DNA of 64,000 bases from the NCBI GenBank assembly GCA_964591375.1, contig CAZQAU010000001.1, forward strand, positions 16,129 to 80,128, in the 5' to 3' direction. The DNA is from an uncultured Gammaproteobacteria bacterium. Its GTDB lineage: Bacteria > Patescibacteriota > Microgenomatia > UBA1406 > GWC2-37-13. Each line of letters opens with the position of its first letter. Position 1 is the first letter of the stretch. Below, in pieces: positions 1-64,000 of the stretch. The notes below the pieces were generated by a model. It did not search any database and had not been told where the DNA came from. It worked only from the letters and a program-made list of their open reading frames with translations. A program made the position numbers and the translations under genes.

Positions 1-2
1 TG

Positions 3-368
3 GCTAGATATGTATTGTACGATGACACATGTGTTTTGATACGAAGATTTAGATATGTGTATCTTTGTGCAAATCACGATAAGAAAAACATTGGCAAATA
101 TCCCTGTTTGATGTCATTGACAAATGTTTTGTCCTATGCGATTGGGAATTTGGTTTGTGTGCGAACCAAAAAAGGAGTTATTCTTGTAGAAAACAAATAC
201 AAAGAAAACAAGATGGATCAAAAGATGGCAAACAATCAAAACAAACCAACCGAATCGGGTACCACAAACAGTATGGCAGATAGTTCAGATGAATATCGCA
301 AAAAGGAAAGGACAATTATGTCTGCGATAAATCAGGTCAATATTCCAATGGAATGGTATTGGGATTAA
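3..368 (+). CDS. hypothetical protein, C-terminal fragment (frame open to the left window edge)
   Basis: No stop in this frame between nt 3 and the TAA at 366-368. The track shows only the TTG-initiated part (15..368). No motif recognised. Confidence 0.35.
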   Translation, partial: ARYVLYDDTCVLIRRFRYVYLCANHDKKNIGKYPCLMSLTNVLSYAIGNLVCVRTKKGVILVENKYKENKMDQKMANNQNKPTESGTTNSMADSSDEYRKKERTIMSAINQVNIPMEWYWD

Positions 369-490
369 TTTGTTATTTTTTCAAAAATGGGTTTTGTTTA
401 TTGTATTGTGTTTTTAAATCTGTATAAAAATTTGTGTTGCAAAATAAACAAGAGTGTTATTAAGAAAAGAGTTTTTTGCAAACACCCCCA

Positions 491-62200: not shown

Positions 62201-63990
62201 CTTTTAATACTCTCTTCTGGATCCTTGTATTTTATAATATCATCTACGTGAACAAACACTTCAGAACTTGTATAATACATGCGTTCGTAGGACGAAGCAG
62301 ATTGCCATTTCCCTCCTTTCAGTCCAATCCATCCCATTTGCAATTGCCTATCTGCTATAAACCTCACTATAAAATCTACATTGCATTCGTATACTGAAAA
62401 CATAGGAGTATCTCCAAAAACTCCTGGATACCAAGCATCATTAAACAGCTTTCGATTAGGGTCATCCCTGAAATCCTCTTTGTTGAATGGAATCCCCAAT
62501 TTCTTAAATTCTTTTTCTTTATCCGTTAACCATAACCTATCATTGCGTTCAAATATAGTAGAACCCATAGGAGGAATGATGCTTTCATAATAGTTAGCCC
62601 ATGGTTTGACATCGTCTCCCTTAGGAGTTTTGCCTCCATATGGAAACCATAGCATTTTTCTCAAGGTAGGAACCAATTGAGGATTCAACAATTCCAACTT
62701 GAAAGCTTTGGTTTTCAAATCACCAGTATATCCCATCAAATCCTTTACTTCCTCAATCACTTTGTCATCGTCATCAGGAAGAGGATATATCAAAAAACGC
62801 TCGTTCTTGAACCTGAAATCATGCCAAAACTTTTTTTTTAGCACATCATCCAAAATATTTCTCAAATTCCTGATCATAGCAACCAAACACCGTTTCCTTG
62901 ATTCTGCATCTTCATATTTATTTTCTACATCTTCAATCCAGTTGTCAGGCACTGCTACATATACATAAGGCCTAAAACCTTCTACTCTAACCGTTATATT
63001 ATTTTTGTCTTGTGTTACTGCATGCAAATTTACATACAGTTTTTTCGATCCTCCTCTTGTAAAATTACTGTAGTCTGCATCATATGTATATACAATCAAA
63101 TCCTCTTCGGGAGAAGGCAATGGATACTCTTTTCTTTTATATTTATCAAATCGTTTGTTTTGTTTTTGTCTAAAATCAAATCGTTCACACGACCTGTTGT
63201 TTCCCAATGGGTCTTTGTATAAATCTCTCCACGGAGGAGACTGATCATATTTGTTCATTCCATCCTCTTCTACAAGAGAATAGGTTGGGTCATAATCCAC
63301 ACATGCCTCAAAATCATTATAAACAGTATATCTTCTCATATCCTTGATCTTAAACCCTGTTATCGCACCATCTATATTGGAAATATATTTATGATACTGT
63401 AATCTGCATGTCACTGAATGTATCATTGCAAGCACTTCTGATATCAACGATATCTTTTTGCCAAGCTCTTTTGGAGGCATACTAGAAGCCACAGAGTCAA
63501 TAATCTTAGACAATTCCGATACAATTTCATTTTTGATATTATTCACATCCTTTTGCTTGTTGATGTATTTATGGTATGTGCTCAGCCACAATCCGGCCCT
63601 TTCTGATACTATATTATATGTTTTCAAATAAGCAAACAAATTTGTCGCACTGTCATAACTCAATTCAATATCAGTATCGAATTTGACAAACGCTTTCTGC
63701 TGACATATAATAAAAACAAAGGAACATTGTTGCTCTATCAAATGATACATCACTTCCGCTTCATGCTTGAGCCTACTAAAACCATTGGGTTTGCGGTTTA
63801 CAAAAGAATAAAACTTCTTTTCCTGCACCGCAGAAAATTCATGCTCTTGTAAAAAAGTACTTACGATATCAACAATGTTGATCTCACATGATCGAAAATA
63901 ATTCAGTAATCCCAAGTAAAATGCAAAATTGAATGCCTGGTCTTCTGAACCAAGAGGTACACTTGAAAGCATTGCACAAAACCCGGTCAT
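59242..63990 (-). CDS. polB: family B DNA polymerase (1582 aa), Pol-delta/herpesvirus-like core with N-terminal extension and Cys-rich C-terminal domain
   Basis: ExoI IACFDAEML; ExoII WNGNGFDIPYY; ExoIII YLYGDITLPRK. Motif A TLDFASLYPSIMM (61132..61155); motif B KVYMNSIYGFLGA; motif C VIYGDTDSIMF (YGDTDS at 60508..60525); KKHYIA. C-terminal CAIC...CNNC and CQKC...C-x4-C. ATG at 63988-63990. Confidence 0.95.
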   Translation of the reverse strand: MTGFCAMLSSVPLGSEDQAFNFAFYLGLLNYFRSCEINIVDIVSTFLQEHEFSAVQEKKFYSFVNRKPNGFSRLKHEAEVMYHLIEQQCSFVFIICQQKAFVKFDTDIELSYDSATNLFAYLKTYNIVSERAGLWLSTYHKYINKQKDVNNIKNEIVSELSKIIDSVASSMPPKELGKKISLISEVLAMIHSVTCRLQYHKYISNIDGAITGFKIKDMRRYTVYNDFEACVDYDPTYSLVEEDGMNKYDQSPPWRDLYKDPLGNNRSCERFDFRQKQNKRFDKYKRKEYPLPSPEEDLIVYTYDADYSNFTRGGSKKLYVNLHAVTQDKNNITVRVEGFRPYVYVAVPDNWIEDVENKYEDAESRKRCLVAMIRNLRNILDDVLKKKFWHDFRFKNERFLIYPLPDDDDKVIEEVKDLMGYTGDLKTKAFKLELLNPQLVPTLRKMLWFPYGGKTPKGDDVKPWANYYESIIPPMGSTIFERNDRLWLTDKEKEFKKLGIPFNKEDFRDDPNRKLFNDAWYPGVFGDTPMFSVYECNVDFIVRFIADRQLQMGWIGLKGGKWQSASSYERMYYTSSEVFVHVDDIIKYKDPEESIKRDPKTDKLERELTEEEKKIQTIIKTPPPFTIACFDAEMLMRFPAFPTPRFCPIIQWGWNFHDAQTNKGKAFEFVLGKPEFVNDEEEKKSKDPDIQMWTLSRKEEDDTETTVFYYYNETDMLRDMAYFEHVMQPQILESWNGNGFDIPYYTRRCQVLGIVEGRSFLQRCRTRDIEWSTTYVKKRRVVDVTTPGLFLNDLMYYMMNFKSGWRSFSLNNASNIILKESKYAFGYDQIEPSHFTYEGREMIRRYLYGDITLPRKIADKDGIYPQLISYTAIQSVPFAYLITRGAQIKVYAGILSYKKKKWEVKWMCVCVLPTYPRKGEKKKTYAGAIVMKPLEGYYTVAVATLDFASLYPSIMMRRNTCYTTMITEWAKRKLGIKQEDYWTQEIPVITDKTIELEPDKMNPEWVKKEVHEGMLPCFERDLKAWRGEAKKVMGRAETRIKTLSTEIEKGICPLVKDDMSQEEQIDLFRKWKTELEYNIRKAQDEKVNADAYQNAIKVYMNSIYGFLGAVNSLCGLKAAAACITREGQIAVTKAKQFAEANVTIELGFPGDLCVIYGDTDSIMFCLKNKDGTFATYTPIQMMHIGAYLSKRISTEVFSWGLVLEFEKIYIAMILLSKKHYIAIKFDDTCIYTLDIKGVQTKRSDSFNFLDKIFNKCVIRVLKYNDVDFMVDYVARQFILLASGKVSLIDLAKGCSLRRDLAVAYTPEEGKRLAITAGMIIAKKRKERTGEDAYAGDRYKFVVVRRKISKGMSQNFRVKKTEESVREASEEVSYAIKKKMNYDAAHYIEKLYDNLVIAFKYCVPGGEPYLKKRWLEQPEMKTVYKKVDGDSALFKAGVQREYKHCAICNTIVTEMQPLPNESEQFGIVRETLNNSTKTRQHIVLEYEGIGKSFIKECNVDIKYKICNNCKESPSARDFITKSYQQSITNAARTWDICQKCPTKNLAPEAIKNCTEYECDNLAKRIDAMSALNENFEKLRALRW

Positions 63991-64000
63991 AACAAAATAT

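Follow-up and report, generated by a model that had tools for sequence, protein, structure and literature searches.

The stretch of DNA analysed here (the window) is 64 kb long, has a GC content of about 0.35, and represents the visible 43% of a 149,503-bp contig. Independent tiling with ORFs starting at ATG yielded 49 ORFs that do not overlap and are 60 aa or longer; together they cover 91% of the window. The preliminary description of this DNA had also counted about 49. The main features are as follows:

1..368, plus strand: C-terminal end of a giant ORF that starts upstream of the window
1370..6784, minus strand: conserved core protein of 1804 aa with a Cys-rich cluster at about residues 745–795
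13727..15055, minus strand: Ulp1/C48-like clan CE cysteine protease (Peptidase_C48, E 2.8e-3, and motif order)
15137..16855, minus strand: ankyrin-repeat protein (Ank_2, E 2e-8; Ank_4, E 3e-7)
22309..24303, plus strand: 664-aa protein with resemblance to XRN-type motifs, a core gene of the lineage
24363..25730, minus strand: conserved 455-aa candidate virion protein
26581..27903, minus strand: conserved 440-aa candidate virion protein
36625..37572, plus strand: PHD-like zinc-finger protein (6.7% Cys; Pfam PHD, E 1.3e-4)
37592..39436, minus strand: C3HC4 RING-finger protein, a putative E3 ligase (zf-C3HC4_3, E 4.7e-9)
44384..45076, minus strand: 2H phosphoesterase (2_5_RNA_ligase2, E 3.5e-5, and motifs)
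45782..47116, plus strand: two paralogous small secretory/type I membrane proteins of 125 and 267 aa (paralogy, E 3e-20)
47156..49408, minus strand: Cys-rich type I membrane protein, paralogue 1, 750 aa
49714..52086, minus strand: Cys-rich type I membrane protein, paralogue 2, 790 aa
52219..53526, minus strand: secreted Cys-rich protein
54778..58113, minus strand: Cys-rich type I membrane protein, paralogue 3, 1111 aa
59242..64000, minus strand: Pol-delta-like family B DNA polymerase (polB; Pfam, motif, and PDB matches)

Coding sequences and recognisable domains

The sequence is present in four studies, covering a bioreactor, freshwater, drinking water, and wastewater, and its read depth is even. 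A second strain (X5), about 96% identical, originates from another habitat and a separate study. Among the 20 listed X5 indels (out of 22), 19 are located outside the refined coding sequences, and the remaining one is a 3-nt deletion inside ORF 54778..58113. Since the indels avoid coding sequence and the only listed one within an ORF is 3 nt long, the ORFs of the window are real genes under purifying selection.

A Pfam search over 45 ORFs, supplemented by passes at relaxed thresholds, placed only polB, the RING protein, and the ankyrin protein above threshold, and produced no credible match beyond these three and the 2H, PHD, and Ulp1 families. The 2H phosphoesterase scored 24.3 bits (cut-off of 27) and contains both HxT motifs required of such enzymes, HVTF at residue 65 and HITL at residue 152, while the PHD-like protein scored 22.4 bits (cut-off of 24). 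The Peptidase_C48 score was 18.0 (cut-off of 20.7), and the protease domain is called from its motifs: H86 (in H86-W87), D103, Q205, and C210 occur in the canonical order, with D103 at a spacing of +17 from the His, as in Ulp1. In the protein encoded at 22309..24303, neither an XRN_N nor an XPG domain was detected by Pfam or by PDB searches to E 10 with phmmer and a two-sequence profile, and the single weak Pfam match is to GNT-I; homologues are present in contigs L003 (38% identical) and L012 (weak). Thus, of the seven domain classes recognised in the preliminary description, polB, RING, and ankyrin are well founded, 2H, PHD, and Ulp1 are weaker and supported by motifs, and the seventh, an XRN/FEN-like nuclease, lacks HMM support, its likeness being one of motifs noticed by eye.

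No tRNA gene and no Rfam match were found in the window. Together with the 91% coding density, the presence of RING, PHD, ankyrin, and Ulp1-like proteins, and Pol delta as the best solved relative of the polymerase, this points to a eukaryotic virus, in agreement with the initial proposal of a large eukaryotic DNA virus. Taken as a whole, the explanation that the window constitutes 43% of a genome or near-genome contig of an uncultivated large dsDNA virus infecting a eukaryote appears reasonably probable. The host is probably a microbial eukaryote inhabiting freshwater and engineered water systems.

The DNA polymerase and its metagenomic lineage

The virus encodes its own Pol-delta-like replicase. 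The full-length polB comprises 1687 aa, of which the N-terminal 105 aa lie past the window end, and matches the Pfam families DNA_pol_B (E 9e-71), exonuclease (E 2e-17), and zf-C4pol (E 1e-3). It combines the characters of delta-like family B enzymes, namely a 3'-5' exonuclease domain, a polymerase domain with the YGDTDS motif (residue 1156 of the window fragment), and C-terminal Cys modules, in which eight Cys residues are invariant in an alignment of four sequences. All of these are shared with eukaryotic Pol delta (POLD1/Pol3), although identity to the latter is only about 30%, and POLD1/Pol3 lacks the 636-aa N-terminal extension of the viral enzyme, which contains no known domain and is conserved only inside the viral clade.

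The top PDB match of polB is the Pol delta catalytic subunit (188 bits, E 2e-54), followed by Pol zeta, HSV UL30, and Pol alpha; mirusvirus polB was not among the labelled references. The match to UL30 would be in line with a herpes-like virus that infects small animals in water and is enveloped, nuclear, distantly related to Malacoherpesviridae or Alloherpesviridae, and equipped mostly with lineage-specific genes. Malacoherpesviridae (ostreid herpesvirus 1 and abalone herpesvirus) are enveloped nuclear viruses with a long polB, RING families, and many class I membrane proteins, and most of their genes have no recognisable relatives, as in the window. Ostreid herpesvirus 1 in particular resembles the window in its long N-extended polB, its many RING and membrane proteins, and its few recognisable genes, and a type I membrane protein is encoded close to polB both in the window and in contig L006. 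However, UL30 reached no more than 66 bits, whereas Pol delta scored 188, no named herpesvirus protein occurs among the top polB relatives, and no sequence link connects Malacoherpesviridae with the window. Neither herpes-specific Pfam families (Herpes_* or DNA_pack) nor the terminase ATPase and other core families of Herpesvirales were detected in the window, and the samples represent microbial water and bioreactor communities. H3 histone and Snf2 ATPase genes, which are carried by sister contigs, are to our knowledge not herpesvirus genes. We consider such an animal virus highly improbable.

An exhaustive polB search of 1.84 billion representative proteins revealed three sister polBs (P0022, P0023, and P0024) with 34–39% identity and scores of 615–770 bits, followed by a gap to the next match at 303 bits. 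Among the best 20 relatives, no virus name or accession occurs, and a name is attached solely to the 20th, a protein of cellular length called "DNA polymerase delta subunit 1". The four-member clade was recovered in 50 of 50 NJ bootstraps, and in 35 of the 50 it falls among 16 long polBs that group together. The small lineage to which the virus belongs thus comprises four polB clusters and is located inside a wider set of metagenome genomes of about 150–172 kb that encode long polBs and are apparently circular or permuted. A near-identical annotated virus, the finding that would have told against the preliminary description, was looked for and not found, and the lineage was not found in IMG/VR or JGI pattern scans. 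The statement that almost every ORF is an orphan holds insofar as named relatives are lacking, but at least nine gene families of the window (polB and at least eight others) have homologues on metagenome contigs.

Common to these genomes are polB, an adjacent Snf2 ATPase gene, type I membrane proteins rich in Cys, and a number of large uncharacterised proteins. The Snf2 gene adjoins polB on contigs L004, L006, L007, and L012, and an H3-like histone (E 2e-14) is encoded on sister contig L004; both genes are thus features of the sister contigs and not of the window. The proximity of a Pol-delta-like polB to a chromatin remodeller and a viral H3 on these contigs bears on the debate over whether viruses and early eukaryotes exchanged genes for replication and chromatin.

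Histone and Snf2 genes in relatives, wider-clade genomes of about 150–170 kb that appear circular or permuted, and an AT-rich, gene-dense sequence would also suit something other than a free virus, such as an element akin to Naldaviricetes, a viral sequence integrated into a host genome, or a cellular replicon densely packed with genes and resembling a nucleomorph or microsporidian chromosome. The chance of this seems to us slight in the extreme. Signatures of PIF, LEF-8, and LEF-9 are lacking, as are LEF-4, P47, and Pfam matches to PIF or P74 in the window, and ribosomal, tRNA, rRNA, and housekeeping genes are absent from the 64 kb. The read depth is even, the second strain was found in another habitat, and neither flanking cellular genes nor introns were seen.

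Hallmark genes and placement of the virus

The Walker A motif, any GK[ST] in a P-loop context, the NADFDGD-type RNA polymerase motif, the LEF-8 motif GxKx4HGQKG, and the LEF-9 motif are absent from all window ORFs. Searches of the window against Pfam and PHROGs gave no match to capsid, portal, terminase, or RNA polymerase families, and no window ORF matched an HK97 capsid protein in Pfam, PHROGs, or PDB; ordinary profiles identified no HK97 capsid, triplex, portal, protease, or terminase in the window or the related flanks, portal and triplex proteins being beyond the reach of such profiles. Capsid_NCLDV and related Pfam families were not found to E 10 in the window and are not recorded for related loci, and no Pfam family of the A32 packaging ATPase, D5 primase-helicase, VLTF3, or RNA polymerase subunits was found in the window. 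The lack of a P-loop, RNA polymerase motif, capsid, terminase, and portal noted in the preliminary description was thus reproduced by motif, Pfam, and PHROGs searches. Its view that this is not a textbook member of a cultured family also stands, as there are no core Pfam matches of NCLDVs, herpesviruses, or baculo/nudiviruses and no named polB relative. However, the absence of hallmarks should not be read as a property of the virus, since only 64 of 149.5 kb are visible and virion genes can evade profiles. Herpes-like and mirus-like virion genes are known to escape ordinary sequence profiles (PMC10132985). The hallmarks may be located beyond the window or be too diverged to recognise; with only part of such a genome in view, their apparent absence is to be anticipated and does not indicate a virus devoid of a known capsid.

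One reading in which core genes lie outside the window or beyond the reach of Pfam is a highly divergent, nuclear-replicating member of Nucleocytoviricota similar to Medusavirus or Mamonoviridae, with a capsid of the double jelly-roll type and a maturation protease of clan CE. Histones and a Pol-delta-like polB also occur in nuclear NCLDVs, and the group of Medusavirus, Mamonoviridae, and clandestinovirus combines them with dependence on the nucleus, freshwater protist hosts, and the absence of a viral RNA polymerase. The Ulp1-like clan CE protease, the ankyrin protein, and the XRN-like motif protein of the window are in line with this reading, as are several strands in the low-confidence model of the 440-aa protein; moreover, the best word-indexed polB match is an NCLDV contig with Rpb1 and a PBCV_P4-like gene. 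However, this match scores 122 bits, compared with 303–770 bits for the long metagenome polBs, and the 972 ORFs that surround the 60 nearest polBs in IMG/VR include no match to any non-polB gene of the lineage. The window lacks any P-loop, and no capsid, A32, D5, VLTF3, or RNA polymerase gene was found in its 64 kb and about 190 kb of related flanks, which weighs against Nucleocytoviricota because these families are normally detectable by Pfam, although a double jelly-roll fold could have diverged beyond it. In Medusavirus, Mamonoviridae, and clandestinovirus, the double jelly-roll, A32, D5, and VLTF3 proteins are recognisable by Pfam, and their genomes are much larger than that of this virus. 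A placement in Nucleocytoviricota is therefore unlikely.

The gene repertoire, likened to published descriptions, best fits a deep-branching member of Mirusviricota, a group omitted from the original list of poorly fitting viruses even though its accessory core resembles the window and its sister contigs. The reported core of Mirusviricota includes C3HC4 RING proteins, histones, and Snf2 ATPases (Medvedeva et al. 2025, PMC12768974). The first of these is encoded in the window and the other two on sister contigs, while other accessory core proteins, heliorhodopsin, TATA-binding protein, and Snf7, were not found to E 5 among the multi-pass membrane and small ORFs of the window. Pfam coverage in Mirusviricota is low, with 13–14% annotation in some orders, cryptic orders contain 43% singletons on average, and nuclear replication is predicted in several orders (PMC12768974); low coverage and numerous singletons are characteristic of the present virus as well. 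The polB of mirusviruses falls together with that of herpesviruses and with Pol delta/zeta types (Gaia et al. 2023, PMC10132985), and Mirusviricota MAGs are reported from anaerobic bioreactors (PMC13524828). Mirusviruses infect unicellular eukaryotes, as this virus probably does, and both are large dsDNA viruses recovered from metagenomes, including those of freshwater and bioreactors. Their reported mean genome size is 265 kb, however, versus about 150 kb here, and the 636-aa polB extension distinguishes this virus from them, while its Ulp1-like protease and Cys-rich type I membrane protein family are outside the reported mirusvirus core. Ulp1-like proteases of clan CE are found more typically in the morphogenesis module of Varidnaviria, which counts against this home. 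Overall, the most likely home, which we propose tentatively, is within Duplodnaviria, either deep in Mirusviricota or in some other lineage of herpes-like viruses of eukaryotes. Since the window has no P-loop ATPase, the terminase would in this case be encoded outside it. Such a branch would add a form from freshwater and engineered systems that is compact (about 150 kb), poor in introns, apparently enveloped, and equipped with its own polB, and would bear on the diversification and nuclear entry of eukaryotic herpes-like viruses.

Several conserved proteins lack assignable families. The giant ORF at the window start, at least 1336 aa long, is carried by Logan contig L002, which reaches 3.6 kb past the window start; it has no Pfam family, and its C-terminus matches that of a 1846-aa L006 protein (tblastn E 5e-10). 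The 1804-aa protein has no Pfam, PDB, or PHROG match, but its blocks 963–1037, 1150–1195, and 1308–1389 are colinear with a 1165-aa protein encoded beside polB on the 162-kb contig L008. The 455-aa protein is 44.5% identical to its L003 homologue, a conservation exceeding that of polB, and the 440-aa protein aligns along its entire length, at 42% identity, with P0021, which is encoded on a Logan contig of 40.5 kb; neither has a family or PDB match, and their AlphaFold models are unusable (pLDDT 35 and 29, respectively). Some of these four proteins would be virion-module genes if the Mirusviricota/herpes-like placement is correct.

Conserved non-enzymatic proteins without Pfam, PHROGs, or PDB profile matches, two of them without a confident AlphaFold fold, in a lineage missing from the IMG/VR and JGI scans, could alternatively indicate a new lineage of high rank, with a virion module that either has no relationship to HK97 and double jelly-roll types or has diverged enough to warrant a new phylum. 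Non-detection is weak evidence here, as the profiles were built from alignments of one or two sequences, and the accessory repertoire already fits a known phylum. In addition, mirus and herpes virion genes require dedicated models (PMC10132985, PMC12768974). We regard a new high-rank lineage as very unlikely; quite unlikely, too, is the specific proposal of a new phylum of nuclear enveloped dsDNA viruses that infect microbial eukaryotes and have genomes of about 150–170 kb, linkage of a long Pol-delta-like polB to Snf2, and a viral H3, in which neither HK97 nor double jelly-roll proteins are recognisable. In any case, the conserved uncharacterised proteins are targets for structure determination and may prove to be very divergent capsid or fusion proteins.

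Predicted nuclear lifestyle and membrane proteins

The AATAAA motif occurs at 8.2 per kb in convergent versus 1.6 per kb in divergent intergenic regions of equal GC content (Fisher p 0.0015). TATA-like motifs at 5' ends showed no enrichment once the AT-richness of intergenic regions was controlled for. Since neither the window nor the roughly 190 kb of related flanks that have Pfam calls showed a viral RNA polymerase, and AATAAA is concentrated at gene 3' ends, we infer that the virus replicates in the nucleus and would be transcribed there by host RNA polymerase II. The RING, PHD, Ulp1-like, and ankyrin proteins, together with H3 and Snf2 in relatives, could serve to manipulate host chromatin and ubiquitin/SUMO systems.

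The particles may be enveloped and bear the Cys-rich type I membrane proteins, as judged from predicted topology. The preliminary description spoke of many N-glycosylated type I glycoproteins; type I topology is indeed predicted, but glycosylation is conjectural, the membrane proteins having 1.0–1.9 sequons per 100 aa, barely above other ORFs. The protein encoded at 52219..53526 has 8.7% Cys, repeated CC motifs, a signal-like N-terminus, and no Pfam match. Paralogue 1 (4% Cys) has hydrophobic segments at both termini and shares aligned motifs with paralogues 2 and 3. Both members of the small pair at 45782..47116 have N-termini resembling signal peptides, and the second contains a TM segment; a homologue is present on the 157-kb contig L012 (E 4e-18). 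In L006, paralogue 3 has a homologue (E 5e-11), and a weak 803-aa homologue of paralogue 2 is encoded near polB (E 7e-8).

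Gene content of the window

ATG-initiated ORFs of 60 aa or longer tile the window, whose GC content is about 0.35: exactly 49 of them, distributed over both strands without overlap, cover 91% of the sequence, in agreement with the count of about 49 in the preliminary description. The GC content is 0.36 in coding and 0.23 in intergenic DNA. No tRNA genes or Rfam matches were found in the window, and its only three tandem repeats are trivial.

Four bioreactor metagenome runs contained essentially 100% of the words sampled from the family B DNA polymerase (polB) gene, and smaller shares of them were detected in metagenomes of freshwater, drinking water, and wastewater that came from three further studies. 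Contigs of a closely related strain from a freshwater metagenome run (X5) cover the window evenly with about 96% identity, the differences being mostly transitions. Over 40 kb, 19 of the 20 listed indels (two more are unlisted) are intergenic or precede a better start codon, and the only one within an ORF removes 3 nt from the gene of the 1111-aa membrane protein (54778–58113). Such a distribution is the mark of purifying selection acting on coding sequences; since the indels fall almost entirely outside coding DNA, the ORFs are real genes and an assembly artefact is ruled out.

Two start codons deserve comment. The first 45 codons of ORF 18861–19616 look non-coding, and X5 carries 2-nt and 1-nt indels there (19479–19616); translation probably begins at the ATG at 19481 instead, leaving a 134-bp divergent promoter region in common with the ORF that begins at 19615. 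For the 697-aa ORF, too, a methionine further downstream is the probable start: its first ATG overlaps the beginning of a divergent 424-aa ORF (29318–29345), and residues 1–40 appear hydrophobic and non-genic.

In a Pfam scan covering 45 ORFs, about 6% of ORFs exceeded the thresholds and about 12% had any credible domain.

Recognisable domains in the window (coordinates, protein, Pfam support)
59242–64000 (minus strand, running past the window end), family B DNA polymerase: E 9e-71, exonuclease domain E 2e-17, above curated threshold
37592–39436, C3HC4 RING finger: E 5e-9, above curated threshold
15137–16855, ankyrin protein: E 2e-8, above curated threshold
44384–45076, 2H phosphoesterase: E 3.5e-5, sub-threshold, both HxT motifs present
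36625–37572, PHD-like finger: E 1.3e-4, sub-threshold
13727–15055, Ulp1/C48-like protease: E 2.8e-3, sub-threshold, His86, Asp103, Gln205, and Cys210 in canonical order

Of the seven classes named in the preliminary description, polB, RING, and ankyrin were thus recovered above threshold, and the 2H, PHD, and Ulp1 assignments are sub-threshold and motif-supported. The seventh, an XRN/FEN-like nuclease at 22309–24303, had no profile match in Pfam or against PDB sequences, which leaves a motif resemblance. A BAH domain considered for ORF 42736–44394 was dropped, as Pfam gave no support.

As initially reported, neither a plausibly placed Walker A motif nor an NADFDGD-type RNA polymerase motif occurs in any ORF of the window; the LEF-8 motif was likewise found in none. 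Nothing further came from relaxing the Pfam thresholds or from comparing the large and the conserved ORFs with PHROGs and PDB sequences: PHROGs returned no matches for ten window ORFs, and PDB profile and single-sequence searches none for the 1804-, 1111-, 697-, 664-, 455-, and 440-aa proteins. AlphaFold models were unusable (pLDDT 29 for the 440-aa protein, modelled together with a single homologue, and 35 for the 455-aa protein alone) because homologues were too few. The original picture of few recognisable ORFs and no visible capsid, packaging, or transcription hallmark is therefore accurate for Pfam and motif scans of the window. Taking this as true absence is not warranted, since the invisibility of the hallmarks is most simply explained by the partial window, 43% of the 149,503-bp contig, together with sequence divergence.

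The polymerase clade and related genomes

When the polB core was searched exhaustively against 1.84 billion representative proteins, three clear relatives emerged with 34–39% identity (615–770 bits), followed by a gap to the next match at 303 bits. The enzyme is Pol-delta-like: its best solved relatives are human and yeast Pol delta (188 bits), then Pol zeta (86 bits) and HSV UL30 (66 bits). The C-terminus of the 1687-aa protein carries cysteine modules, while residues 1–636 (window 62085–64000 and beyond) form an N-terminal extension without a Pfam domain that is conserved in the wider clade (contigs L008, L010, and L011).

On a neighbour-joining tree of 156 polBs (907 trimmed columns, 50 bootstraps), the window polB and its three relatives were grouped in 50/50 bootstraps, and this group was nested within 16 long polBs of 1395–2265 aa in 35/50. 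Contigs with long polBs reach 149.5, 157, 162, 171.6, and 172 kb. The 162-kb (L008/L009) and 157-kb (L012/L013) genomes were each recovered from independent samples at nearly identical lengths; their assemblies start at different points, which suggests that these genomes are circular or terminally permuted.

No virus name or accession occurs among the best 20 polB relatives, the first named one, at rank 20, being a cellular-length 'DNA polymerase delta subunit 1'. A scan of IMG/VR with the polB clade alignment found no member of the lineage: its 60 loci were generic polBs, with 22–28% identity in 58 of them and 35–38% over short stretches in two, and none of the 972 flanking ORFs matched any non-polB protein of the lineage, their neighbours being unrelated. 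Scans of IMG/VR and JGI metagenomes using narrow patterns from polB alone and from three two-sequence families also gave no relatives.

Homologues of other window proteins were found in unnamed assemblies. A word-indexed search of 5.8 billion proteins returned one homologue of the 440-aa protein (26581–27903), P0021, with 42% identity over the full length, on a 40.5-kb Logan contig. The 11.4 kb of this contig analysed here (L003) also encodes homologues of the 455-aa (24363–25730; 44.5%) and 664-aa (22309–24303; 38%) proteins, in the same order and orientation as in the window, with extra ORFs in between. The contigs of the three closest polB relatives (L004, L006, and L007) again have almost no Pfam matches. 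In L006, an 803-aa protein near polB is matched by the Cys-rich type I membrane proteins of the window, and the C-terminus of an 1846-aa protein by the giant ORF whose end lies at window position 368. The 1804-aa protein (1370–6784) has three colinear blocks in common with a 1165-aa protein adjoining polB on the 162-kb contig, and the small membrane protein pair at 45782–47116 has a match on the 157-kb contig, adjoining a weak relative of the 664-aa protein. The term 'orphan' hence holds with respect to named relatives, of which there are none, and fails for relatives as such: a coherent virus lineage without named members sits in public assemblies.

Two chromatin-related genes occur in these relatives. 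L004 (1921–2664) encodes a 247-aa H3-like protein that aligns to H3 residues 10–133, nearly the whole H3 length (E 2e-14), and carries 75 additional residues at its N-terminus; the window itself yielded no histone. A Snf2-family ATPase of 1053–1583 aa lies a few genes from polB in four related genomes (L004 2884–6891, L006 12516–16544, L007 6215–10966, and L012 5087–8248), those of L004, L006, and L007 (1335–1583 aa) being close to it. In the window's own genome this neighbourhood would fall beyond position 64000.

Probable nuclear transcription and affiliation

AATAAA, counted over all intergenic regions of the window (e.g., 24304–24362 and 10724–10737), occurs 13 times in convergent (3'-3') versus 5 times in divergent (5'-5') regions, five times denser at equal GC (Fisher p 0.0015), the pattern expected if the mRNAs use a eukaryotic polyadenylation signal. 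TATA[AT]A showed no such bias; a TATA-box enrichment that seemed strong relative to the window as a whole vanished once the 5' and 3' intergenic classes were set against each other. Given the AATAAA concentration, and since neither the window nor the flanks of related contigs show a viral RNA polymerase or capping enzyme, we infer that the virus would replicate in the nucleus and its genes would be transcribed by host RNA polymerase II. The accessory genes point to manipulation of the host: the RING, PHD-like, Ulp1-like, and ankyrin proteins, with H3 and Snf2 in relatives, would act on chromatin and ubiquitin/SUMO signalling.

Judged from its genes, the window is part of a large, probably nuclear dsDNA virus of eukaryotes, most likely mirus-like or herpes-like. 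Membership of Mirusviricota is defined by an HK97-type virion module, which ordinary profiles miss, and the window is likened to this group by gene repertoire, not by that module. Its gene combination fits descriptions of Mirusviricota in the very low Pfam coverage and many lineage-specific genes, the C3HC4 RING (histone and Snf2 ATPase being found here in sister contigs), a polB of Pol delta/zeta/herpes type, predicted nuclear replication, and occurrence in freshwater and bioreactors. RING proteins, histones, and Snf2 ATPases belong to the reported mirusvirus core; Pfam annotation stands at 13–14% in two orders, and singletons average 43% in the 'cryptic' orders (PMC12768974). Mirusvirus MAGs have been recovered from anaerobic bioreactors (PMC13524828), and in the polB phylogeny mirusviruses are the sister group of Herpesviridae, close to Pol delta and zeta (PMC10132985).

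However, the window lacks heliorhodopsin, TBP, and Snf7. This absence, together with the clan CE protease, an enzyme more characteristic of the other viral realm, is why a divergent nuclear-replicating member of Nucleocytoviricota is retained as an alternative, although an unlikely one, no NCLDV core family being seen anywhere in the window or related flanks. That the lineage defines something deeper than a mirus-like or herpes-like virus appears rather improbable still. Placement in Naldaviricetes, among textbook herpesviruses, or as a cellular replicon is unlikely, and a nucleomorph or microsporidian chromosome was rejected, as the window contains no housekeeping genes.

Candidate envelope and virion proteins

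A signal-peptide-like N-terminus was seen in seven window ORFs, of which five end in a C-terminal membrane anchor as well; three of these five are paralogous Cys-rich proteins of 750–1111 aa. These are candidate envelope proteins, glycosylation and the envelope itself being presumed. If six virion genes were evenly spread, the chance of finding none in 43% of the genome would be about 3% (0.57 to the sixth power), so some of the conserved unknowns in the window are likely virion proteins. The best candidates would be the 440- and 455-aa proteins, both more conserved than polB.

ORF 52219–53526 encodes a 435-aa secreted protein with 8.7% cysteine, repeated CC motifs (e.g., GCCPVGQVCC, CCGNSICPTGWGCC), and no Pfam match, reminiscent of granulin-like modules. 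Two adjacent ORFs at 31419–33649 (423 and 270 aa) contain no or almost no cysteine, and the long lysine-rich C-terminal half of the former is probably disordered; a scaffold-like or DNA-binding role is possible for this longer protein.
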